Origin: an uncultured Desulfurococcaceae archaeon
GTDB lineage: Archaea > Thermoproteota > Thermoprotei_A > Sulfolobales > Desulfurococcaceae
Direction: 5' to 3'
NCBI GenBank assembly: GCA_964542295.1
Contig: CAZITZ010000001.1
Location: forward strand, 11,724-39,820
DNA length: 28,097 nt
Positions 1,700 to 21,847 of this stretch are shown in pieces (position 1 is the stretch's first letter; each line of letters starts with the position of its first letter). Made by a program: the position numbers and the translations under genes. The notes below the pieces were generated by a model that worked only from the letters and a program-made list of their open reading frames with translations, was not told the DNA's origin and made no database searches.

Positions 1700-2017
1700 T
1701 TGGAAATGGAAACTATAAGAGAACGTATAATGAGGCTTTTTATAGAAAATATAGGCAGGTTTTATACCGTAAATGATATTATTACGATTCTTGCCCTTGA
1801 TCTTAAGCCTTTTGAAGTATATAGGCACATTGAACATATAGCTAAATCAATTAAAAGAAAAACTAATGGTAAAATTGAAATAGCTATGCAACCGCCAAGA
1901 TGTCGTAAATGCGGCTACTTATTTAGAGATCTTAAAAAGCCTAGGAAGCCAAGTAGATGTCCAAAATGTAAAAGTGAGTGGATAGAACCACCAGCTTTTG
2001 GAGCTATAATGAAGTAG
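1700..2017 (+). CDS. Predicted transcriptional regulator, HTH fused to a Zn ribbon
   Basis: N-terminal wHTH-like region; CRKC...CPKC Zn ribbon with SEWIEPP tail; GAGGAGG RBS before the TTG. Confidence 0.85.
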   Translation: MEMETIRERIMRLFIENIGRFYTVNDIITILALDLKPFEVYRHIEHIAKSIKRKTNGKIEIAMQPPRCRKCGYLFRDLKKPRKPSRCPKCKSEWIEPPAFGAIMK

Positions 2018-2034
2018 CATGATATAGTCATATA

Positions 2035-2044
2035 TTTTAATAAA
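2035..2044 (+). promoter_or_regulatory. TATA box for the C/D sRNA pair
   Basis: TTTTAATAAA about 25-30 nt upstream of the first C box. Confidence 0.5.
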
Positions 2045-2065
2045 CCTCAAAACAATACTTATACC

Positions 2066-2135
2066 GGATGATGAATGGGGACCTCCCATTATAGGGAGGA
2101 GCTCTGAACTGTGATGTGGGGCCAAAGCGCTGAAT
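2066..2135 (+). ncRNA. Box C/D sRNA with an elongated, hairpin-containing D' guide; the D guide fits tRNA-Gln(UUG) U34
   Basis: C ATGATGA 2068-2074; D' CTGA 2104-2107; C' GTGATGT 2111-2117; 12-nt guide GGGGCCAAAGCG; D CTGA 2130-2133. Confidence 0.8.
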
Positions 2136-2140
2136 AAAGT

Positions 2141-2197
2141 ATCCGATGAAGAATACGCCATCGGGTGATCCGTGAACGGTAGTCCGCTTCCGAGGAT
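2141..2197 (+). ncRNA. Box C/D sRNA, second of the tandem pair
   Basis: C ATGAAGA 2146-2152; 12-nt guide; D' GTGA 2165-2168; C' GTGAACG 2172-2178; 11-nt guide; D CCGA 2190-2193; terminal stem ATCC/GGAT. Confidence 0.75.
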
Positions 2198-2261
2198 TTA
2201 TCCTCCTCTTTATAAGCCTCTTATTTTCTTAATGGGTTATCTAGGTAGGTGTATAGTATAG

Positions 2262-3401
2262 ATGCTGAGAATAACATACATTGATTATAGGAAGTATCCT
2301 TTCTTAGAGAAAGTAGATAGGGTTCTTACTCGGGTATGGCCAGGACTGAATTTAATAGATCTAATCTCTTCTAAATCGGGAATTGTATATGAGAATGCAA
2401 TGAAAAGTTTCAAGTATATATTGGAAACTGGAAAAGCTCCTCCACCACAGTCAACTTCGGAGAATGAGGTTATAACATTTTATTCAACAATATTTCTAGC
2501 ATCATTAACAAATAATAGATGGGTTATCGAGAGAGTAGCTATTGCATATTCAAAGAGAGCTAGCGAATTCTTAGCTAAAGATTCTCCAGAATCAATTATT
2601 GTAGTCGCTCATAGACTAGGTATAGAGGTTAAGTACGTTACTGATAATGCTCCTCGTATACCGATTGGTATAAAGAGGTCATCAATAATATATCGTACCC
2701 TACCATATGCTATAGCATTAAAAGATTATGTAAAATACTCTCGTAGGTTATCAAGTGATCCTAGGTATGCTCTTGTAAATCAGATACTTGATCGTGGATG
2801 GGTTTATGTAGATAAGAAAGTATTGTCAAGAATTTTAGAAGAAGCTATTATGAGTTACATAAAATCTATGATTAAACCTATAAAAGAAATTCCTTCAGAA
2901 TTAAATGAATTAGTTATGGAGATAATGAATGTTTTAAGAGAATACATTGGTGAAGAACAATCATTTAAACTATTGAGTACTACTGGAGAAAGAATAATTG
3001 AAGAGGAGCTAAAAGGAATAATAGACTATGAATTATTTCCTCCTTGTATGAAAAAATTAGTAAATGAACTACGCAGTGGTGAAAACCTAAGCCATCATGC
3101 TAGATTTACTATTGCTGCATTCCTATCAAGAATAGGTATGGATGTTAATGATATACTCGATCTATTTAAGAACTCGCCAGATTTTAATGAGAGAATAGCA
3201 AGATACCAAGTAGAACACATTGCTGGTTTAAGAGGATCGAGAAAACAATATATGCCCTATAGTTGCCAAACAATGAAAAGCCTGGGTCTATGTCCAGTAC
3301 CTAATAATGATTGCGGTGTTAAGAATCCTCTTGTCATATATTATAGAAACTTACGTAAAAAGTATAGGAAAAGTAGATTGGAGAGTAAGTCGAATAAATA
3401 G
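2262..3401 (+). CDS. priL: DNA primase large subunit
   Basis: FPPCM, LSHHARF, YQVEHIAG and YSCQTMKSLGLCP...C motifs of the PriL Fe-S C-terminal domain. Confidence 0.95.
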   Translation: MLRITYIDYRKYPFLEKVDRVLTRVWPGLNLIDLISSKSGIVYENAMKSFKYILETGKAPPPQSTSENEVITFYSTIFLASLTNNRWVIERVAIAYSKRASEFLAKDSPESIIVVAHRLGIEVKYVTDNAPRIPIGIKRSSIIYRTLPYAIALKDYVKYSRRLSSDPRYALVNQILDRGWVYVDKKVLSRILEEAIMSYIKSMIKPIKEIPSELNELVMEIMNVLREYIGEEQSFKLLSTTGERIIEEELKGIIDYELFPPCMKKLVNELRSGENLSHHARFTIAAFLSRIGMDVNDILDLFKNSPDFNERIARYQVEHIAGLRGSRKQYMPYSCQTMKSLGLCPVPNNDCGVKNPLVIYYRNLRKKYRKSRLESKSNK

Positions 3402-4490: not shown

Positions 4491-5142
4491 AGTATTGATA
4501 ACATTAACATTATTAATGCTTATAGCATTCTCTATCACTATTGCATCAACGCCCTCTATTTATTATAAAGTATCTTACTCTATTGAAATAGATAATAAAG
4601 TAATTGAGAAGGAGTTCTTTATAAAATTCTATCCATTAAACAATTCGATAGTCATTAATAATACTTTACTTTTTCAATCAACAATAGAAATAAAAGAATA
4701 TGGAATAAAAATAGATCTAGTAAATGAAGAAAAAGAAGGAGAAGTGGTTCGTGATTTTACTATTCAAGTTGATGAAAGACTTGAGAAATTTGATGTACTT
4801 CATGTAATCAAAAAATATAGGTCATATTTTATTGAGTTATATTATGAATTATCATCTGGTATCTTAATTCAAGCGGATATATATGATCTCGAAGAAGAGG
4901 CTACACCTATAGGAATAATATTCCTATATAACTATACAGTACCGTTAAACAAAATATATACTCTATCAACGTATCCAACAACATCGCCTCTAAACATCTC
5001 ATCTACTATCTCTAATACCAGGACAAATACATCGCATACAAATAATCAGGGCCATCCATTAACAACTATTCTACCTATAGTACTCCTACTCGCAATAATT
5101 CTCGTAGTCTTCACTATATTACTTAAAAAGAGAATAGCTTAA
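4483..5142 (+). CDS. Secreted, C-terminally anchored protein with Ser/Thr-rich linker
   Basis: ATG 4483 preferred over 4459 because it gives a clean signal peptide (MFRVLITLTLLMLIAFS); S/T-rich stretch, then TM and KKR; several N-X-S/T sequons. Confidence 0.7.
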   Translation: MFRVLITLTLLMLIAFSITIASTPSIYYKVSYSIEIDNKVIEKEFFIKFYPLNNSIVINNTLLFQSTIEIKEYGIKIDLVNEEKEGEVVRDFTIQVDERLEKFDVLHVIKKYRSYFIELYYELSSGILIQADIYDLEEEATPIGIIFLYNYTVPLNKIYTLSTYPTTSPLNISSTISNTRTNTSHTNNQGHPLTTILPIVLLLAIILVVFTILLKKRIA

Positions 5143-5200
5143 CTCCTTTTACTATCTAAATATATGTATAAGAGTTAAAGTCCATATAGATTGGAGAAGT

Positions 5201-5920
5201 ATGATGTCTAGATTTTGCATATACTGTGGAACAACTGGTTCGGAGGATAATCCTGTTGTTAATGGAATTTGTCTAAAATGTATGCTAAAGAGAGGGAGAT
5301 TAATTAAATTAAGGAAAAATAGTATAAGAGTCGATATTTGTAAAATCTGTTATTCTATAAAGATCGGTTATAAGTGGTTTGAAACATCTGGATTCGAAGA
5401 TGCAATATCAAGTATTATCAATAATATTGTGCCCAGATTACTTGAGCCTAGCTCTAGAGAACAAGTATTTTTTATTGAAAAATACGAATTTATCACAAAA
5501 GCGTCATGGAAGACAGTAGTAAGAGTATATGTTATCACATTCTTTGGAGGAATACAAATAGAGGTTCCTCTTGATATAACTATTTTCTTAAACCCAGTAA
5601 AATGTCCAAGATGTAGAATGTATAATAGTAGAGAATTTGAAGCAGTTGTCCAGATAAGAGGATATCCATTAAGTTATGTTTTTCAAGTACTTGAGAAAGT
5701 ATTTCTAGAAGATAGAAGATTATTAAGAGATTTCATTGAATCTATTAGTTCTCATAATGGTATAGACATTTATTTCTTTACCCATGGAGCTGCTCGTAAG
5801 CTAGCCCGTAAACTAGTACATATTCTAAATGCTCATATTATGGAAACATATGAGGAAGCTGGCATGAGAAGTGGTAAACAAAGAGCTAGATTATATATTA
5901 GTTTGAAGCCTAAAGCATAG
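5201..5920 (+). CDS. nmd3: NMD3-family ribosome maturation protein
   Basis: CIYC, CLKC, CKIC and CPRC Zn motifs; EAVVQIRG motif. Confidence 0.9.
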   Translation: MMSRFCIYCGTTGSEDNPVVNGICLKCMLKRGRLIKLRKNSIRVDICKICYSIKIGYKWFETSGFEDAISSIINNIVPRLLEPSSREQVFFIEKYEFITKASWKTVVRVYVITFFGGIQIEVPLDITIFLNPVKCPRCRMYNSREFEAVVQIRGYPLSYVFQVLEKVFLEDRRLLRDFIESISSHNGIDIYFFTHGAARKLARKLVHILNAHIMETYEEAGMRSGKQRARLYISLKPKA

Positions 5921-8608: not shown

Positions 8609-9880
8609 TTATGGTATTAGCCTTGTTCGATCTCGTACAAATATTGTTGCAAGTCTTACATTCTCAAGACCTAGCATACTCATCATCAATCTTTCAACAC
8701 CTAGTCCGAAGCCTCCATGAGGAGGCATGCCATACTTAAATGCTTCTAGATAGAAACTAAAGTCTTTTGGATTAAGACCCTTAAGTTTAAGAGCTTCTAC
8801 GAGCTTTTCATATCGATGTTCACGTTGTCCACCACTGGCTATCTCAAGGCCTCTATAGTCAAGATCAAATTTCCGTGTATGATAGTTATCCTCTTCCCTC
8901 ATATAATAGAATCCAGTAGCAGGCCATGGAAAACCAACTATGAAGTATATGTTGTAGCCCTTCTCAGCCATTATCTCTCCTAGTTTCTTCTCAGCAGATT
9001 CGCTAAGATCTTCGCCTTCAGGGACCTCTATGCCCTCGCTTCTGAGTATATCAACGGCCTCTTCGAATTTTAGTCGCTTAAACGGTATTGTTAATGGATC
9101 AACATTTATACTAAGTATATCTAGTTCCTCTCTAGCCTCGGTGCGTACCTTATCAGCAATGTATTTAACAAGTTCTTCCAAAAGCCTCATAACATCTTCT
9201 TCGCTATGTATGAATCCCATTTCAGCATCTATTCCCCAAGATTCATTAAGATGGCGTGTAGTATTGAATTTCTCTGCCCTAAAATATGGCGTAATCTCAT
9301 AAACACGTGGAATACTAGACATAAGTATTTGTTTATAGAGTTGAGGACTTTGGCTAAGATAAGCTTTGTATTCGAAATACTGTATTGGGAAGAGTGTAGC
9401 GCCTCCCTCAGCGCCAGCTGCCACGATTTTGGGAGTATGTACTTCAAGGAATCCGTTTTCTTCAAAGAATTTTCTAGCACTACGGAGAATAACAGATCTT
9501 ATTCTAATGAGTGCTTTTTCAGCAGGATTCCTGATCAATAAGTATCTATACTTAATTCGTGTATCTAGTAATGTTGGTACTTTACCAACAGTATCAACGG
9601 GTAATGGCTCGAGAGGCTCTGCATATACCTTAATATTCTTTACAAGATATTCTATGCCCCTCTTACTCCTTTGTTCAGGTGCTATTTCTCCTTCAAAACA
9701 TATGGCTGTACCTATTGCTAGTTCTTTAGCTTTTTCATAAAGCTCAGGCTCTCGATTCTTCTTTAAGACTATAACAGCGGGTTTTACATGTTCTCCTATG
9801 CTTAATTCAATAATAATGACCCTGCCAACAGCTTTATGCCGTATAATCCATCCACATATACGTTTACTCAACATATACAC
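8609..9880 (-). CDS. aspS: Aspartyl-tRNA synthetase, archaeal type
   Basis: GATLF, YLSQSPQLYKQ, FRAE..NTTRHLNE and GMPPHGGFGLGVERL motifs. Confidence 0.93.
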   Translation of the reverse strand: MYMLSKRICGWIIRHKAVGRVIIIELSIGEHVKPAVIVLKKNREPELYEKAKELAIGTAICFEGEIAPEQRSKRGIEYLVKNIKVYAEPLEPLPVDTVGKVPTLLDTRIKYRYLLIRNPAEKALIRIRSVILRSARKFFEENGFLEVHTPKIVAAGAEGGATLFPIQYFEYKAYLSQSPQLYKQILMSSIPRVYEITPYFRAEKFNTTRHLNESWGIDAEMGFIHSEEDVMRLLEELVKYIADKVRTEAREELDILSINVDPLTIPFKRLKFEEAVDILRSEGIEVPEGEDLSESAEKKLGEIMAEKGYNIYFIVGFPWPATGFYYMREEDNYHTRKFDLDYRGLEIASGGQREHRYEKLVEALKLKGLNPKDFSFYLEAFKYGMPPHGGFGLGVERLMMSMLGLENVRLATIFVRDRTRLIP

Positions 9881-10002
9881 CTAGGCAAAACCAATATATA
9901 GTACGTAATAAAAGAATTATCCTTATCCATAACTAAAATAAACAATGATAATAATTAATAATCAATGCAGATGATTTATACATAGTCTAAAAGATTAAAC
10001 AA

Positions 10003-10016
10003 TTAAAGTATATAAG
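10003..10016 (+). promoter_or_regulatory. BRE-TATA promoter pointing into the BHB-flanked RNA
   Basis: TTAAAG followed by TATATAAG (10009-10016), about 25-30 nt upstream of G10041. Confidence 0.6.
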
Positions 10017-10040
10017 ACATAGAAGACAAAAATAAAGTAT

Positions 10041-10236
10041 GCAGCCAATCACTCGGAACCGCCAGCTACCCCGAAAGCCCGGGCAGTCCAGAACATGAGC
10101 ATTACAATGATTGTTTTGGGCAATGAAACGCCTGGGAAGAAAAACCACTAGCTGGTGGTTGCTCCCCTGGCAACGGGGGAGTGGGTTCTCCGGGGTGGCT
10201 TCGGGGACCCGGAGGCCCCCGAGTGGGCTAGAGCTA
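10041..10236 (+). ncRNA. Unassigned structured RNA closed by a bulge-helix-bulge motif; predicted 183-nt excised circle (10049-10231) with a K-loop/H-ACA-like hairpin
   Basis: 115 of 190 nt are G+C (10041-10230, counted) in an AT-rich genome; BHB AGCC-AAT / GGCT-AGA; closing stem CACTCGG/CCGAGTG; GCAA and C(UUCG)G tetraloop hairpins indicate the + strand. Confidence 0.8.
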
Positions 10237-12906
10237 TGGTATTTTCCTTGTTATCCTCTTCCTAAATTCTTCAACTATGATTATTACATGTGATATTAGT
10301 ATAATGTATATTAAGCTTTCTATGTCTAGAGGTACTGCACCCAATAGCCACGGTGCTATATAGATGGGTATTATTGCTAATGCTAATCCAGCTAAATAAC
10401 CCAATATATGATATTTGTTTGATAGTAATCCTATTTCTAATAAGCTCTTGTAGGGACTTCTCATATTATAACTATGGGCTAGCTCTCCTATGGATAATGT
10501 TAAGTATGTAGCAGTAGCTATTGCTAGTGGGGATAATGTATGACTCAAAGTCCATGAAAGAGCTGCCAGTACAAGTCCTATATAACCTATAAATACTAGT
10601 CCAGATTTTCCAAGCAGGGGCTTAATACTCCATGGCGGTCTCTTCAATATATCTGGTTCCGGGGGTTCTAGACCAAGTGTTATAGCAGGCACAGAATCCG
10701 TTACGAGGTTAATCCATAAGATCATTGCAGGAGTAAGTATAGCTTCTCTAAATAATCCTATTGAACCAAGAACTATAGTTACTTCAGCGATATTGGCAGA
10801 TAATAAGTATAATGTTGATTTACGTATGTTTTCATAACTAGTTCTACCATCTTCTATAGCTGCAACAATTGTAGCAAAATTATCATCTTCAAGAATAAGA
10901 TCACTAGCTTCACGTGCTACATCTGTTCCCCTTAGGCCCATGGCGACACCTACATCGGCAAGCTTTAATGCCGGAGCGTCATTAACTCCATCGCCCGTGA
11001 CAGCTACGACATGCCCTCTTTTCTTAAGGGCTTTTACAATACGTAGCTTATGTTCCGGCGAAACTCTTGCAAAGATAGCTGTATCTTCAACAATATTGTA
11101 TAGTTCTTCATCACTCATATTCTCTAATTCGCGTCCGGTAACTATTCTTTTACCCTCTAGTGATAACCCGATCATCTCAGCAATAGCTTTAGCTGTTATA
11201 GCATGATCACCTGTTACCATTATGACTTTTATACCTGCATCCAATGCTTTTCTAATAGCATCTGGTACTTCAGGTCTAGGTGGATCCAATAGACCTGTTA
11301 AACCTATAAATACTAAGTCCTTCTCGGAATCTTCATCACTAGGTATTTCATCAACAATTTTATATGCATACCCTAATACTCTAAGACCTTTAGAAGCCAT
11401 TTCTTCGGAAACGGCAATAATTTCATTGACATCATCCTCATCAATGCTTTTTAAATAATTGTTCCTGAGAATGTACTTGGATCTTGACATAATGACTTCA
11501 GGAGCTCCCTTACTATACACTATATACTTGTTCTTAGCCCTTACTATAACACTCATCATCTTTCTTTCACTTGAAAAAGGTATTTCCTTTATTCTCTGCA
11601 TAGTATTTCTTAATTTCACGTGATCGATCCCTGCCTTAGTACCGAATACTACTAATGCAGCTTCCATGGGATCGCCTATAGGTTTAGGCGGATTACTATT
11701 ATAGTCTACATCACTATTGTTACATAGTATGGAATCTTCTAAAAGTAGATCTATAGATTTGTTTTCGCCATAAATTATTTTCTTACCTTTATAGAGTATA
11801 GCACCTTCTTTAAGATAACCACTACCAGTGATATTTAAGTAGCCTAATCCAGGGATCCATGCCTTAATAACAGTCATTTCATTACGTGTAAGTGTACCAG
11901 TCTTATCAGTAGCTATAACTGTTACTTTTCCAAGGGTCTGTACTGCTCCAAGGCGGCGGACTAATGCATGTCTACGGGCCATACGTAAAACACTTAGTGC
12001 AAGGATCATAGTTAAGACAGCAGGTAACCCCTCAGGTACAGCTGCTACTGCTAAAGCTATACTAGTTAGCAATGCTTCGATAGGCGATGTTATATTTAAT
12101 ATTATGGAAAGGCTTAGGACAAGTAATGCTATGGCTATGATAACTCCTCCAAGTTGTTTAGCAAGCCGATCCATCTCCTTATGCAGTGTTGTTTTCTCTT
12201 CAAGACCTGAGGTTTCAGCTATCATCTGTGCTATACGACCAACTTCAGTCGCCATACCTGTTGCAACAACGACGGCTTTACCACTACCCCGTACAATGTA
12301 CGTGCCTGAAAAAACCATGTTTATACGGTCAGCAACTGGCGTATCTGGTTCAAGAACTACGTCAGCTTTCTTCATGACAGACTTGCTTTCACCAGTTAAT
12401 AGGGATTCATCAACATATAAATTTATAGCTTCAATAAGTCTTGCATCGGCTGTAACACGATCTCCTTCGGACAATACAAGTATATCTCCAGGTACAAGGT
12501 ATCTTGAATCAATCTCGACTAAAGTACCGTTTCGTATGACCTTAGCCTTAGGTACAACAAGTGATTTAAGCTTCTCAAGAGCTTTTTCTGCACGGTATTC
12601 TTGTATAACACCTGCTATAACCATTATAGCTATAATAGCCAATATACTTACTGCATCTTCTGTTTCACCTACTATTAAAGCTATTATTACAGCAGCAATT
12701 AAGAGTAACATGAATAAATTAACGATTTGTCCCAAAATGATTTTCCAAATACTTCTTTTACCTTTAGGCTCAATAATGTTTAATCCATATTTTCTTATTC
12801 TTTCTTCAACATCTTTATTACTAAGTCCTTGATCAGGATCAGTATTAAACTTCTCCAATACTTCTAAGATACTCACTGAGTGCCATTTTTCCTTCACACT
12901 AGGCAT
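10234..12906 (-). CDS. P-type ATPase, type IIA (Ca2+-transporting, SERCA-like)
   Basis: TGES, PEGLP, DKTGTLT, KGAPE, MVTGDH and GDGVNDAPAL motifs; membrane ligands NIAE, WINLVTD and a TM8 Glu. Confidence 0.93.
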   Translation of the reverse strand: MPSVKEKWHSVSILEVLEKFNTDPDQGLSNKDVEERIRKYGLNIIEPKGKRSIWKIILGQIVNLFMLLLIAAVIIALIVGETEDAVSILAIIAIMVIAGVIQEYRAEKALEKLKSLVVPKAKVIRNGTLVEIDSRYLVPGDILVLSEGDRVTADARLIEAINLYVDESLLTGESKSVMKKADVVLEPDTPVADRINMVFSGTYIVRGSGKAVVVATGMATEVGRIAQMIAETSGLEEKTTLHKEMDRLAKQLGGVIIAIALLVLSLSIILNITSPIEALLTSIALAVAAVPEGLPAVLTMILALSVLRMARRHALVRRLGAVQTLGKVTVIATDKTGTLTRNEMTVIKAWIPGLGYLNITGSGYLKEGAILYKGKKIIYGENKSIDLLLEDSILCNNSDVDYNSNPPKPIGDPMEAALVVFGTKAGIDHVKLRNTMQRIKEIPFSSERKMMSVIVRAKNKYIVYSKGAPEVIMSRSKYILRNNYLKSIDEDDVNEIIAVSEEMASKGLRVLGYAYKIVDEIPSDEDSEKDLVFIGLTGLLDPPRPEVPDAIRKALDAGIKVIMVTGDHAITAKAIAEMIGLSLEGKRIVTGRELENMSDEELYNIVEDTAIFARVSPEHKLRIVKALKKRGHVVAVTGDGVNDAPALKLADVGVAMGLRGTDVAREASDLILEDDNFATIVAAIEDGRTSYENIRKSTLYLLSANIAEVTIVLGSIGLFREAILTPAMILWINLVTDSVPAITLGLEPPEPDILKRPPWSIKPLLGKSGLVFIGYIGLVLAALSWTLSHTLSPLAIATATYLTLSIGELAHSYNMRSPYKSLLEIGLLSNKYHILGYLAGLALAIIPIYIAPWLLGAVPLDIESLIYIILISHVIIIVEEFRKRITRKIP

Positions 12907-13066: not shown

Positions 13067-13756
13067 TTGCCGAGTAAAAGAAAGAAGTTAAGGAAAAAAG
13101 GTGTTAAGACTCTGGATTTCTTCCTTAATAGAAAAGCTGGTCAAGAAACTAAAGATTATTTAACTAAGGATAAATCTAAATCTACAAGAAAAGATGAACT
13201 TGAAGTTCTTTTCAATGAATTGTTTAAACCTGTACAAGCAACATTAGATAAATCCCGTACCGATCTAGCTACTATGAGTTTAACTAGTAAGTCTAAACAA
13301 GGTCCTCTTGAAAAAGAGACACCAGTTCCACATAAGGAGGAAGTTCCTAAAGAAGTAGTTTTACTCAGAACTCCTATACCTGAAGGCGACATTTTACGTA
13401 AACTCCTTGAAAAACCCATAAGAACAATAAATGAAATTATGTGTAGTAGTGATGGATTATGTAAGGATAATAGGAGATTGTCGGAGACATTTATTGACGA
13501 ATTCGGTTTTAAAAGACAGAGAGGATTTGTTAGGACTACAAGAGCACCTGTCTTTCTTGATTGGATAGTTGAGGAAGCTGTTGTCTCAAAAATACTTCCA
13601 ACAGCATATAAAGTTGAGACTAGTCGTGGAGCAATAGCTCTTATTCCAGAGAACTTTCTATGTGAGCTTGATAAGAGATATGGTGTTTTATTAAAGAATT
13701 ATGATTGTAGCAATTATAAATTATCTATTTCTCCTAGTGAAAAAAGAAAGAAATAG
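13067..13756 (+). CDS. Hypothetical protein with a basic N-terminus and PIP-box-like motif
   Basis: 229-aa ORF; GAGGGGGG RBS before the TTG; VKTLDFFL motif. Confidence 0.75.
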   Translation: MPSKRKKLRKKGVKTLDFFLNRKAGQETKDYLTKDKSKSTRKDELEVLFNELFKPVQATLDKSRTDLATMSLTSKSKQGPLEKETPVPHKEEVPKEVVLLRTPIPEGDILRKLLEKPIRTINEIMCSSDGLCKDNRRLSETFIDEFGFKRQRGFVRTTRAPVFLDWIVEEAVVSKILPTAYKVETSRGAIALIPENFLCELDKRYGVLLKNYDCSNYKLSISPSEKRKK

Positions 13757-18619: not shown

Positions 18620-19438
18620 GTGGGCATCGTTAAAACTGTATATGCATTATTGATCTTTGTAATATTATTTCTAGGAATTATGTGTATATCGGGTAATATC
18701 CTAGTCTTAAGTGGGGCAACTCAAGAATATGCTATTACAATAACTGGTAATTACACTATATTAGAAGCAGATTTTGAATTAATGAATATATCAATATTCA
18801 ATTACGTGTATATAGCACTTGATACATTAGATAAAGGAGCTGGTTATAGCTACGGTGTTATAATAATATGTGATCCCGATGAAAATACTCCTACATTGTA
18901 TCTCATGGCTGGCTCTGGAAATAGTTGGTATAGAATAATGAATGTGAACATCAAAGATAATGTAAGATTCTCTATATTAATAGATCATAATAATAAGACT
19001 ATATATTATATTATAAATGGTAAGTTAGGTAATATAAATAAATCAATGATTGTAATGCCGGAAGGTGTATCAATAATATTGAATTCTATAGGAAGAGAGT
19101 ATCCGCCTCCATCAATTAATTTGAAAAAGCTGATTGTCCTAGAAACAAATGATACTCATGTAGTAGATTATTTCCTTAAAGCTGATTTCAACAGAATATA
19201 TGAGATTTCTATTATAAGGCTTAATAAAACAAAAATTGAAATAACGCCTACTCAATCTCCTACAATTTCATCTCCTACAACATCACCTAGTTCAACAACT
19301 ATACAGCCTCCTGCACAAAGTCCTCCATACTTATCACCGACAATAGTAGCATTAATAATAGTAATATCTTCTATAACAACTATAATTGTTATATTAATTA
19401 TCACTCTGTCTCGAAGAAAAAGGTCCCCCGGTCCGTGA
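18620..19438 (+). CDS. Surface protein with signal peptide, Pro/Ser/Thr linker and C-terminal TM anchor
   Basis: Hydrophobic N-terminus; TPTQSPTISSPTTSPSS linker; TM followed by RRKR; six N-X-S/T sequons; GAGGT RBS. Confidence 0.8.
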   Translation: MGIVKTVYALLIFVILFLGIMCISGNILVLSGATQEYAITITGNYTILEADFELMNISIFNYVYIALDTLDKGAGYSYGVIIICDPDENTPTLYLMAGSGNSWYRIMNVNIKDNVRFSILIDHNNKTIYYIINGKLGNINKSMIVMPEGVSIILNSIGREYPPPSINLKKLIVLETNDTHVVDYFLKADFNRIYEISIIRLNKTKIEITPTQSPTISSPTTSPSSTTIQPPAQSPPYLSPTIVALIIVISSITTIIVILIITLSRRKRSPGP

Positions 19439-19495
19439 AGTAATCACACCCCTCCGGCGCTTAAGGGGTCATCTAGTAGAGGCCCCGGTCATCCC
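19422..19495 (-). ncRNA. C/D-like double K-turn sRNA with non-canonical covarying boxes
   Basis: C-like ATGACCG pairs with D-like GGGA; D' ATGA; spacer hairpin CCCCTT/GAGGGG with a TGT bulge; C' GTGATTA; two 13-nt guide-length segments; followed by TTTTT. Confidence 0.5.
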
Positions 19496-19567
19496 AATCT
19501 AGTGTTTTACAATTGTTCATTTTATTTCTTTCCAGATTCTGGCAAATATTTTAATAGTTTATTAATA

Positions 19568-21847
19568 CTAGGCTATTGGACTACCATATCTAGACTCAGC
19601 TGGTTTTTCATAAATACGGGTTTTACCACTAATGACTCTTCCCAATATATATAGAGCCTTCTTTCTAGACAAGATCTTGTTATTATTACCGCAATATGGA
19701 CTGTATATACATCTAGGACAACCATCATCGCATCTGCAGTCTTCCATAATTTTATATGCTAATTTCTCTGCCTTCTCAAAGCGATCGAATAAAAGACTTG
19801 CTAATCCACTGCCGCCCACGGCAGAATCATATATAACTATATCGCCACTAGGATAGCTAATTCCGCCTAAATCACCTAATCCTGCTCCACACACTGGTCT
19901 GGCGGCAGATATTATTGTATGTTCTATGGCATGAAATGCCTCTGCATTATCCATTAAATCCCATTCATTTCTGTATGGATATTTTAATAGTAGGGCTCTT
20001 GTTCTATAGGTATATACAACTGGTTTATCAAGATATTCAATAGCTGCAGGTCTATTACTTTCAAAAATACTATACACAGCATAGCCTTCAACATTAATTG
20101 ATATTGTTACCCTTGCATATGCTAGAGGTATTCCTCTAGTACTTATTCTTTCCCTAACAATACCATAGTCGATAAGATCAGTTGTATATAGAGGACGTGT
20201 ATACAATGGTGTATCGTCAGGCAATCTACGTACTCTGGCAATTCTCTTATCAGGATCAATCATTATACTTTGGTAAACTTTACCGCCATGTAAATAAATG
20301 GCATATGGATGGAGATCGAGAACTGCCATGGGCAATTCACGAAAACCAATTACCTTGTCATTTTCATCATGAATAGCCACTTGTGGTCCAGCACCACGGA
20401 TCGTCATATATTTAAAGAATTCTTTTCTAGCTCTTCTCCATACTGGGAAATAGCCTATAGGAATAGATACTGCAAAGCCTTCATCAACAACTTCATCAAA
20501 AGCCTTCTTCCAACTAATCCTTTTTGCAAGCTCCTTTCTAACCATACCCTGTTGTAAAAGTAATGCAAGTGCATGGATACGTAGAACTTCTTCATTACTA
20601 GGCTCTATGTAGATGGGTGGAATATCTTGTGTAAAATATTCTTCAGGATTCTTCTCATAATATGAATCAATAGGGTCGTCACCTAAGATCATGAAAACAT
20701 AGCCTGTTCTACCACGCCTACCAGCACGGCCGGCTCTTTGTATATATTTGGCATAGCTAGGAGGAGGTGCAACCATTACAACGGCATCGAGATAACCTAT
20801 ATCTATACCTAGTTCTAGAGTAGGTGTTGCAACAACACCATCGATCTCTCCTCGGGATAATTTAATCTCCACACTTCTTCTTTCCTCTGGTGTAAGACCA
20901 GCGCGGTGAACATGGAACTCTGCATTAAATCCTCTACGTATAATCCTTGCTATTACTTCTGCCATCTGCTGTGAATCTACAAAAACAAGTACTCTTAATC
21001 CAAGTCTAGATAGTAATGCTGCTACTGAGGCCGACACACTCCATCTAGAAAGATAACCTGCAGAGATCATAACATGATAAGCTATTCCTCTTCTCCAAAT
21101 AGGTCCACGAACGACTTTTACTTTCTCACCAAACAACATCTCTCCATGTTTCTCAGGGTTACCTATAGTGGCACTTGAGCCTATGAATACTAGATCTTTC
21201 CTACGAAAGATCTTTACTCTTTCAATAGTTGCTCTAACATGTGCTCCAAAAGCACCTTCATATGAATGCATTTCATCAAGTACTAAATAATCAATATTTC
21301 TAACCATTTTTCTGATTGCAGGGCTAAGTACTAGACCTACATGAATCATATCAGGGTTCGATATTAGTATATGAGGTGGATTAGAAGATATTTTCTTCCT
21401 TTCCTTTCTGGGTGTATCCCCGTCATATACAGCAGTTGTAACGTATCCAAACCCTGTAATCTCATTAATTCTTTTTAATTGATCTCGTGCAAGCGCTTTA
21501 GTTGGATATAATAATAATGAATTTGGATTTCTACTACTATTTATGCCTTTGGTTATTAACGGTATTAGGAAAGCCTCTGTCTTCCCAGTTCCTGTACCAG
21601 ATGCTATCACAGTATTATATCCATCAAGTATATATTTAATTGCTTCCCATTGAAACTTATACAATCTCTTAATGCCTTTTGATAAGAGATTATGTATTAG
21701 AAACTCAGGTATATCAAGGTCTTCTATAAACGGTCCCGGCTCTGGCTCTCCTATTTCCTCCTTTCTCATATGTATAATCTTAACTTGGTTTCCATATCGA
21801 TTAAGAAGTAGTTCATGGAATTCTCTAAGTATTGGATCGGTCTTCAA
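19568..21847 (-). CDS. DEAD/DEAH SF2 helicase with C-terminal DUF1998 (Hrq1/MrfA/SftH-like)
   Basis: SGTGTGKT, DEMH, SAT, ELGIDIG and QRAGRAGR motifs; HAIEH; CRCDDGCPRC. Confidence 0.92.
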   Translation of the reverse strand: MKTDPILREFHELLLNRYGNQVKIIHMRKEEIGEPEPGPFIEDLDIPEFLIHNLLSKGIKRLYKFQWEAIKYILDGYNTVIASGTGTGKTEAFLIPLITKGINSSRNPNSLLLYPTKALARDQLKRINEITGFGYVTTAVYDGDTPRKERKKISSNPPHILISNPDMIHVGLVLSPAIRKMVRNIDYLVLDEMHSYEGAFGAHVRATIERVKIFRRKDLVFIGSSATIGNPEKHGEMLFGEKVKVVRGPIWRRGIAYHVMISAGYLSRWSVSASVAALLSRLGLRVLVFVDSQQMAEVIARIIRRGFNAEFHVHRAGLTPEERRSVEIKLSRGEIDGVVATPTLELGIDIGYLDAVVMVAPPPSYAKYIQRAGRAGRRGRTGYVFMILGDDPIDSYYEKNPEEYFTQDIPPIYIEPSNEEVLRIHALALLLQQGMVRKELAKRISWKKAFDEVVDEGFAVSIPIGYFPVWRRARKEFFKYMTIRGAGPQVAIHDENDKVIGFRELPMAVLDLHPYAIYLHGGKVYQSIMIDPDKRIARVRRLPDDTPLYTRPLYTTDLIDYGIVRERISTRGIPLAYARVTISINVEGYAVYSIFESNRPAAIEYLDKPVVYTYRTRALLLKYPYRNEWDLMDNAEAFHAIEHTIISAARPVCGAGLGDLGGISYPSGDIVIYDSAVGGSGLASLLFDRFEKAEKLAYKIMEDCRCDDGCPRCIYSPYCGNNNKILSRKKALYILGRVISGKTRIYEKPAESRYGSPIA

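Follow-up and report, generated by a model that had tools for sequence, protein, structure and literature searches.

Between aspS and a P-type cation ATPase gene of an uncultured Desulfurococcaceae archaeon, we find a gene for a small noncoding RNA (ncRNA) whose two ends form a motif of the bulge-helix-bulge (BHB) type. The gene lies in a stretch of 28,097 nucleotides (nt) of contig CAZITZ010000001.1 (GenBank assembly GCA_964542295.1), which was analyzed as a whole and is called the window below. Positions 10039-10246 of its plus strand are an independent gene for a structured ncRNA, so far seen in Desulfurococcaceae only. At least 26 genomes have a homologous RNA gene in divergent orientation upstream of aspS, those of Desulfurococcus mucosus, Thermosphaera aggregans, Thermogladius and Staphylothermus among them. 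That these RNAs form a genuine structured ncRNA family is, in our judgment, close to certain. We also think it likely, with some reserve, that this independent Desulfurococcaceae gene yields a transcript that is matured through its BHB into a small circle.

The gene stands out by its composition, as the island at 10041-10234 (+) has 61% GC and the window as a whole has 35%. An earlier reading of the bare letters (hereafter the first-pass annotation) had put an island of roughly 60% GC between aspS and the stop codon of the ATPase gene, which the measurement bears out. The same annotation had called the island a 'host-less BHB intron'. It was right in seeing a stand-alone gene with a BHB at its ends, but 'ncRNA gene that carries a BHB processing stem' is the apter label.

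The BHB motif and promoter across the family

The 5' half of the motif (10041..10049, +) consists of an outer strand GC (10041-42), a central strand AGCC (10043-46) and the bulge AAU (10047-49). Its 3' half, which together with the 3' strand of the inner helix P1 (10219-25) occupies 10219..10234 (+), consists of GGCU (10226-29), the bulge AGA (10230-32) and an outer GC (10233-34). The central helix is exactly 4 base pairs (bp) long, A10043-C10046 with G10226-U10229. It is enclosed on the outside by G10041-C10042 paired with G10233-C10234 and on the inside by the 7-bp helix CACUCGG (10050-56) with CCGAGUG (10219-25), so that flanking helices of at least 2 bp are present on both sides. The two bulges, of 3 nt each, lie on opposite strands, each 3' of its own central-helix strand, which is the topology of tRNA introns. 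The minimum free energy (MFE) fold of the window RNA adds 3 further pairs outside the 2-bp outer helix, past a 1-nt bulge. Each part of the BHB described in the first-pass annotation was found where that annotation had placed it, and a purpose-built, unbiased BHB scanner independently recovered the same motif.

EndA, the archaeal splicing endonuclease, cuts a BHB with 3-nt bulges 3' of a 4-bp helix after the second nucleotide of each bulge. By this rule the predicted cuts fall between 10048 and 10049 and between 10231 and 10232, and the geometry agrees with the circle of 183 nt that had been proposed for 10049..10231 (+). The predicted junction, G10231-U10049, would close P1 with the 7-nt loop GGCUAGU, and the sequence to be expected across a junction of the window type is CCGAGUGGGCUAG joined to UCACUCGG. 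For T. aggregans the predicted junction is CGUAGGCAGGCCAC joined to AUGCCUACG, and for D. mucosus it is CGGGGGUAGGCUAC joined to AUACCCCUG.

Relatives were gathered from contigs with aspS homologues, keeping one genome per species, which gave 80 aspS loci (comparison loci carry L-numbers, such as L001). The scope of the family search is therefore the syntenic site upstream of aspS, plus one locus reached from a protein encoded downstream, which we call X. Motif scans and a covariance model together yielded 25 distinct genomes, those of D. mucosus, T. aggregans and Thermogladius, whose RNAs are short forms, being added by motif scan and synteny, and the 26th genome was found starting from X. 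The covariance model was built from 8 sequences. It identified 20 true members in 85 loci, with E values from 3e-52 to 6e-3, all upstream of aspS, and gave no match in the aspS loci of Thermofilales, methanogens, Thermoplasmatota and other archaea. On the window it scored 223 bits on the plus strand versus 24 bits on the minus strand. Each locus has a single copy of the RNA. We also scanned 658 kb for a restricted motif (RGCY-A ... GGCY with a GC-rich inner helix) and obtained 40 matches, 31 at the syntenic site and 9 scattered. The one scattered match that was examined, a BHB-like pattern at 5707-5922 of L038, lies in coding sequence, has a folding z score of +0.26 and is put down to chance.

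Statistics on the BHB refer to 25 tabulated members. The first-pass annotation had named loss of the BHB geometry in homologues as a test of its proposal; the core of the motif has been retained, with a central helix of 4/4 bp in 25/25 members (100% paired on a model-fitted alignment of 18 of them, described below) and P1 98% paired in those 18. The two middle pairs of the central helix, G-C and C-G, are invariant on the same alignment (18/18). Its 3' strand is always GGCY, and its 5' strand changes only in ways that preserve pairing. The 5' bulge measures 3 nt in 24/25 members, L015 reading equally well as 3 or 4. The outer helix closes the 3' bulge in most members, and the rest have a relaxed bulge-helix-loop form. 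P1 occurs as CACUCGG, CGCCCAG, CACCCAG, CGCCCAC, UACCCCC, UGCCUACG and CGUCCCCU, each with its complement on the other strand. As a result of this arrangement the predicted junction loop is conserved as GGCYANN, 7 nt made up of GGCY, two bulge nucleotides and one nucleotide of the 5' bulge. The predicted circles range from 113 to 184 nt.

Upstream of the motif, the sequence TTAAAG TATATAAG at 10003..10016 (+) forms a TFB-recognition element (BRE) and TATA box, just where they had been annotated. Within it, AAAGTATATAAG occupies 10005-16, and the TATA core ends 27 nt 5' of the central helix. In 22/25 members a TATA-like box has its end 22-31 nt before the central helix. A box at so set a distance indicates that the transcript begins at the motif and that the gene stands alone, as the first-pass annotation had held. 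From the usual archaeal spacing between TATA box and start, transcription is predicted to begin at about 10038-10041. Downstream, a T-run at 10242-10245 (+) begins 8 nt past the BHB and is likely an archaeal terminator; a run of at least 4 T beginning no more than 8 nt after the motif is present in 12/25 members. Leader and trailer are short and unconserved, and conservation does not extend beyond the motif.

Fold, covariation and known RNA families

The plus strand of the element folds with an MFE of -100.7 kcal/mol (z = -4.85), which none of 200 shuffles equaled, versus z = -1.77 for the minus strand. We folded every member under constraint and arrived at one architecture, comprising P1, a P2-P3 arm and the hairpins H4 and H5. 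In the window, the 5' strand of P1 (CACUCGG, 10050..10056, +) pairs with 10219-10225, and the 5' strand of P2 (AACCGCCAGCUA, 10057..10068, +) pairs with the 3' strand UAGCUGGUGGUU (10149..10160, +). The P3 arm (10078..10136, +) has a base of CCCGGGC (10078-84) with GCCUGGG (10130-36) that is 100% paired. This base has a conserved G-U pair, which fixes the strand, and contains CCGG throughout the family; the tip of the arm, 10085-10129, differs between lineages. H4 (10161..10182, +) has 9 bp and a GCAA tetraloop. Its loop is often of the GNRA type in the family, and the hairpin is missing from the short forms. H5 (10183..10218, +) carries a 13-nt loop, GUGG-C-UUCGGGG-A (10195-10207), that supplies two further pairing strands, Y' (10195-98) and X' (10200-06).

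These strands form two pseudoknots with the internal loop between P2 and P3. Strand X, CCCCGAA (10069..10075, +), is on the 5' side of the internal loop and pairs with 10200-10206 (pseudoknot 1), and strand Y, CCAC (10145..10148, +), is on its 3' side and pairs with 10195-10198 (pseudoknot 2). Both pairings persist with differing sequences in about 12 lineages. Pseudoknot 1 occurs as CCCCGAA:UUCGGGG, CCCCGGA:UCCGGGG, CCCGGGC:GCCUGGG, CCAGGU:ACCUGG, GCCAGGC:GCCUGGC and CCUCGCA:UGCGAGG, and pseudoknot 2 as CCAC:GUGG, ACAC:GUGU (L012), CUCCA:UGGAG (L013), CCCCCC:GGGGGG, ACCCU:AGGGU and UCCCU:AGGGA. Among close relatives, pseudoknot 1 shows a switch from A-U to G-C between the window and L002, L009 and L012, and pseudoknot 2 shows a switch from C-G to A-U in L012. 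When the loops were shuffled, the observed pseudoknot pairing was matched in no more than 5% of trials for 16/20 sequences, and RNAalifold recovered pseudoknot 2 unaided. The lengths of P2 and H5 are matched in most members (12/11 bp, 10/10, 10/11, 9/10 and 5/6), which fits an arrangement in which P2 and H5 run side by side from a four-way junction, with the loop of H5 reaching the internal loop. Compact cores of this kind are typical of catalytic RNAs, of binding RNAs and of RNAs that scaffold ribonucleoproteins (RNPs).

To score covariation, we aligned 8 sequences with MAFFT and compared them with the proposed structure. In this alignment 95.9% of cells pair and 23 pairs show compensatory change, while shuffled alignments gave 9.2 ± 2.2 compensatory pairs (0/500 reached 23) and slid partners gave 2-5. 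An 18-member alignment has 96.6% of its cells paired, a percentage inflated by the fitting of that alignment to the model structure, and 39/52 compensatory pairs versus 8-19 for slid partners, a control that, like the count of pair types, is less affected by the fitting. By helix, P1 is 98.4% paired with 5/7 pairs compensatory, P2 97.4% with 11/12, H4 94.6% with 8/9, and the stem of H5 96.8% with 9/11. A single MAFFT alignment of all long forms misregistered the pseudoknot columns between subgroups; we therefore used the 8-sequence alignment, the covariance-model alignment and complementarity tests on each sequence. Every covarying helix falls within the predicted circle. Collectively, these patterns show a complex tertiary fold under strong purifying selection, and the covariation support is on par with that of many Rfam families.

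The P3 tips of several members have the form AAxxU-GA ... GA beside the P3 base, resembling a kink-turn, the binding site of L7Ae. As the window and other members are off the consensus, we make no claim of such a site.

The RNA belongs to no known RNA family among those tested. At gathering score, Rfam 15 returned nothing except ordinary tRNAs from the whole window and from L005-L008. A search at E<=10 of 9950-10330 (381 nt), in which the halves of a permuted RNA would show, gave chance matches only, and in eight further loci nothing was found at the RNA coordinates except a 15-bit match to HgcG with E = 4. The chance matches met overall were lysM-TM7, CrcZ and the 15-bit one to HgcG. Thus the first-pass annotation, which could not match the RNA to tRNA, 5S RNA, signal recognition particle (SRP) RNA or RNase P RNA even when permuted, is upheld by Rfam at E<=10 in the window and 12 homologous loci. 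We looked at several candidates individually. For tRNA, including intron-containing and permuted forms, ARAGORN found none in the window, and neither U33 nor the T-loop consensus is present in the junction loop GGCYANN. For SRP RNA, be it of the usual form or permuted as in Thermoproteus, Rfam gave no match at E<=10 at 9950-10330 of the window or in the other loci. RNase P RNA of types A, M and T likewise had no Rfam match; a likeness of GAAAGCCCGGGC and CAGAAC to conserved regions CR-I and CR-V, noted by eye, varies in homologues. The helix order P1-P2-X-P3-Y-P2'-H4-H5 fits neither RNase P nor SRP RNA. No C box (RUGAUGA) occurs in 25 circles, junction included, and CUGA occurs in only one, which argues against a C/D box small RNA (sRNA). 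Although 183 is divisible by 3, the lengths of the other circles are not, speaking against an open reading frame (ORF) read around the circle, and a small ORF is excluded by element lengths of 124-195 nt with indels that ignore the reading frame. A mobile intron of the rRNA type is at odds with an intergenic element that has no conserved ORF and a fixed syntenic position. In the literature on BHB motifs, circular RNA and these genera, we found no description of the RNA, and the classes reported for archaeal circular RNA (rRNA intermediates, tRNA introns, C/D sRNAs, 5S, SRP and RNase P RNAs, and omega-RNAs) include none of this kind.

Maturation, protein X and competing explanations

We propose a maturation pathway built on the motif geometry and the promoter. 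From the BRE/TATA, transcription would begin a few nucleotides 5' of the motif, and the T-run would end it about 10 nt after. Leader and trailer would then pair to form the BHB, EndA would cut after A10048 and after G10231, and an RtcB-type ligase would join the ends into a 183-nt circle with P1 capped by GGCUAGU. The fold inside this predicted circle is itself shown by the covariation: P1, the P2-P3 arm, H4 and H5 meet in a four-way junction, and the H5 loop pairs with both strands of the P2/P3 internal loop to make the double pseudoknot. Most plausibly, the circle would be the functional form, and circularization would seal the ends against exonucleases and against thermal fraying in a hyperthermophile. 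Our best guess, a speculative one, is that the circle and protein X make up a small lineage-specific RNP, with the circle as its RNA subunit. Judged from sequence, circularization as predicted is probable. That these RNAs amount to a new class, defined by a non-permuted gene, obligatory circularization through a BHB, a four-way junction with a double pseudoknot and an RNP with X, is a bolder proposal, which we offer tentatively, as possible rather than likely.

X is an orphan basic protein of 229 amino acids (aa) encoded by a previously unannotated ORF at 13067..13756 (+). It is a candidate partner because RNA and X are both confined to one small clade and are usually adjacent. Homologues of X are encoded, for example, at 5124-5735 (-) in L007, 1846-2547 (-) in L015 and 1992-2870 (+) in L097. 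In 13 members (half of the family) one follows the RNA directly on the same strand. The gap between RNA and X is 52-105 nt in 8 clearly read loci and 371 nt in L013 and L043, and in each such gap there is a separate AT-rich TATA-like box. The ATPase gene separates the two in the window, L001, L002 and L005. In L025, L029 and L038, X adjoins aspS and neither the covariance model nor the motif scan detected the RNA, which has been lost, has moved or has diverged past detection. Downstream of the RNA, D. mucosus and T. aggregans carry a gene other than X. The proteins encoded there, of about 280 aa and hydrophobic (4659-5507 (-) in L006 and 4825-5667 (-) in L008), are homologous to each other and unrelated to X, with no Pfam match.

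The ends of X are rich in lysine and arginine, and the protein has a disordered linker. Its C-terminal domain, about 125 aa long, contains four invariant cysteines as well as the motifs RQRGF..TTR, DW..EE, TxRG and RYG. AlphaFold2 confidently models this domain as mainly beta, with a predicted local distance difference test (pLDDT) score of about 90. Pfam, NCBIfam and the PDB gave no sequence match, and Foldseek found no structural neighbor in the PDB (best E = 0.26). A profile search of 1.84 billion representative proteins returned only 36 clusters, with a sharp cut-off. Going by gene order and distribution, X may be linked to the RNA; we regard this as a lead, not a finding.

Several observations weigh against our reading of a Desulfurococcaceae ncRNA gene matured into a circle. 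Counting both strands, there are 93 formal BHB-like patterns in the window (inner helix >=5 bp, <=1 G-U), and a bare BHB pattern is no more than chance would give; the motif owes its significance to its place, precisely where a conserved structured RNA begins and ends, and to its being kept in homologues. An outer helix of 2 bp is found in 14/25 members and one of 1 bp in 7, and 4 have none. With it reduced or missing in 11/25, the strict hBHBh' geometry is not universal, and many members have a relaxed motif. The heterotetrameric EndA of crenarchaea is known to tolerate relaxed motifs, in organisms other than these (PMC4731332, in part). The Thermogladius RNAs, with predicted circles of 113-116 nt, are without H5 and both pseudoknots, so that the smallest core shared throughout consists of the BHB, P1, the P2-P3 arm and a single hairpin. 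The RNA is present upstream of aspS in 20/34 assessable Desulfurococcaceae loci and missing from that site in 14/34; in 9 of these 14 a tRNA-Met (CAT) gene fills the slot. The predicted window junction had 0 matches in metagenome contigs, which are essentially DNA, so that the result carries little weight. A junction of the L013/L016 type had 7 matches in the same kind of contigs, all of them unrelated hairpins in GC-rich contigs with flanks unlike the RNA. Finally, the link between X and the RNA derives solely from gene adjacency and a shared narrow distribution.

Some of these points would suit an RNA that is the same ncRNA but functions in linear form. In that case the 4-bp helix, the 3-nt bulge and P1 would serve as a stem that binds protein or protects the ends and has no more than a likeness to a BHB, or EndA would trim the ends without stable ligation, in the manner of pre-rRNA. 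Consistent with this, the outer helix has 0 or 1 bp in 11/25 members, the predicted start is just 0-5 nt before the central helix, leaving little to remove, BHB-like patterns readily arise by chance, and the metagenome contigs, essentially DNA, had no match to the junction. We nevertheless consider a linear form rather unlikely. The 4-bp helix in 25/25, the 3-nt 5' bulge in 24/25 and the closed 3' bulge in most members have been held while the other helices covary freely, and the central 5' strand varies only within its pairing with GGCY, which is expected if its sole role is to build the motif. Moreover, cleavage of BHB motifs in archaea is established to lead to ligation by RtcB (PMC4731332). 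A different possibility starts from the genes downstream: the element could be a BHB intron or a cis-acting leader in the 5' untranslated region of the X mRNA, with the circle as a by-product or with X binding the leader and so regulating itself. X does lie downstream on the same strand in 13 members, at the short distances given above, and mRNA introns and BHB motifs in mRNAs, such as that of cbf5, are known from archaea. Yet a convergent ATPase gene of 2.7 kb stands between the RNA and X in the window, L001, L002 and L005, where the RNA and its promoter are fully conserved, and another gene follows the RNA in D. mucosus and T. aggregans. Where a T-run is present it begins within 8 nt past the motif (12/25), a TATA-like box is found in every gap between RNA and X, and L025, L029 and L038 have X beside aspS without the RNA. 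A leader of X is, on this evidence, improbable.

The RNA could also be a diverged, minimized or permuted version of a universal RNA (SRP, RNase P, 5S or tRNA). The SRP RNA of Thermoproteus, which is permuted, and the RNase P RNA of Pyrobaculum, which is minimal, are precedents, and the superficial likeness of GAAAGCCCGGGC and CAGAAC to CR-I and CR-V points the same way, though it is unconserved in homologues. Set against these are the empty Rfam 15 search at E<=10 over 381 nt, the lack of any match in 12 other loci, the negative ARAGORN result and the misfit of the helix order, together with circles of 113-184 nt that are too small for archaeal SRP RNA or type A RNase P RNA. We take a universal RNA to be highly improbable. 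Still less credible is a relic of a mobile archaeal intron of the rRNA type in an intergenic site, a true 'host-less intron'. Introns in the rRNA of Desulfurococcaceae do form stable circles, and the element has a BHB at its ends; against such an origin, it has a fixed place by aspS, its own promoter at a set distance and a divergence across genera that resembles vertical descent, it is without a homing-endonuclease ORF, it occurs once per locus, and its complex tertiary fold is under strong purifying selection. An independent ncRNA gene that is matured through its BHB into a circle thus remains the reading we favor.

Known systems and genomic setting

The first-pass annotation knew of no described intergenic ncRNA gene that uses splicing only to circularize its own RNA. 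This was overstated, as the SRP RNA gene of Thermoproteus precedes it (PMC4731332). That gene stands alone; the TATA box is its own, the leader measures 23 nt, and leader and trailer form a BHB (PMC4731332), and in Thermoproteus tenax and T. uzoniensis the SRP RNA is permuted and circular, its cleavage and junctions having been shown experimentally (Plagens et al. 2015, PMC4731332). The RNA described here shares the stand-alone gene, the TATA box, the short leader, the leader/trailer BHB and a host that is a hyperthermophilic crenarchaeon, the relaxed EndA being that of Thermoproteus. EndA cleavage and ligation give a stable circle in Thermoproteus, and here they are predicted from sequence. 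The Thermoproteus gene is permuted and its circle restores helix 8, whereas the present gene is non-permuted, the junction merely caps P1, and the RNA falls in no known family.

Other systems offer partial likenesses. The processing stems of pre-16S and pre-23S rRNA are also terminal helices with a BHB formed by the flanks, and the circle that EndA and ligase produce holds the whole functional RNA, as is predicted here. Pre-rRNA circles, however, are intermediates that are opened later, and they come from polycistronic transcripts and measure kilobases; the present RNAs are monocistronic, with predicted circles of 113-184 nt and no sign of reopening. With tRNA introns, including the C/D sRNA intron of tRNA-Trp, and with the tRNA intronic circular RNAs (tricRNAs) of metazoans, the element shares the BHB geometry and, by prediction, an excised circle that is potentially functional. 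Unlike the element, tRNA introns have functional host exons; here there are a leader of about 10 nt and a trailer of about 10 nt, both unconserved, and no C/D boxes. The raiA, OLE and ROOL RNAs are large structured bacterial ncRNAs with pseudoknotted multi-helix junctions, some with a dedicated protein partner encoded nearby. The present family resembles them in its covarying, pseudoknotted fold, its narrow phylogenetic range and the neighboring candidate partner gene that some of them also have, and differs from them in being archaeal, with no Rfam similarity. We know of no case in which raiA, OLE or ROOL RNA is circularized through a BHB.

If our reading is correct, the EndA/ligase pathway would serve for more than tRNA, rRNA and cbf5 and for more than rescuing a permuted SRP RNA gene, as a routine route to a dedicated circular ncRNA, and there would be more natural circular RNAs with genes of their own. 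If the bolder proposal of a new class also holds, this would be the first BHB circularization used purely to mature and stabilize an otherwise normal ncRNA gene. The RNAs are a new structured family that could enter Rfam and annotation pipelines, which now leave the locus blank, and they are accompanied by a candidate protein partner, X, for which no structural neighbor was recognized. T. aggregans DSM 11486, D. mucosus DSM 2162 and Thermogladius, which have members of the family, are cultivable, so that the role of the RNA and its need for circularity are open to direct testing.

In the window, aspS lies at 8609-9880 (-) and matches tRNA-synt_2. The best matches of its product are from uncultured Desulfurococcaceae, the nearest named one being 'Desulfurococcaceae archaeon MEX13E-LK6-19' at 80% identity; the aspS of Desulfurococcus, Thermosphaera, Thermogladius and Staphylothermus has about 68-73% identity to that of the window. 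On the other side of the RNA, the P-type cation ATPase gene (10234-12906, -) is convergent to it and separates it from the gene for X. The final base of the ATPase stop codon is also the final base of the BHB outer helix (10234). A P-type ATPase gene is found at this site in the window, L001, L002 and L005 and is missing from most other members, and from this distribution it is apparently a lineage-specific insertion between the RNA gene and the gene for X. The first-pass annotation had remarked on an RNA tail antisense to the ATPase stop. The overlap is present, but it is incidental, as most homologues have no ATPase neighbor.

A second GC-rich island, of up to 60% GC, lies at 19401-19510, between ORFs at 18620-19438 (+) and 19568-21847 (-). 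Rfam gave it only a spurious 17.8-bit match to the large-subunit rRNA model of trypanosomatid mitochondria, and neither strand has a significant fold (z = -0.04 and +0.21). It may be a small RNA that lacks structure, or it may be nothing.

Among the loci that lack the RNA, those with tRNA-Met in the slot include L027, L030, L031, L033, L034, L035, L037 and L039. The tRNA gene is on the aspS strand, at about 2736-2898 (+) and, in L039, at 2285-2359. This arrangement upstream of aspS may mark a rearrangement hotspot.

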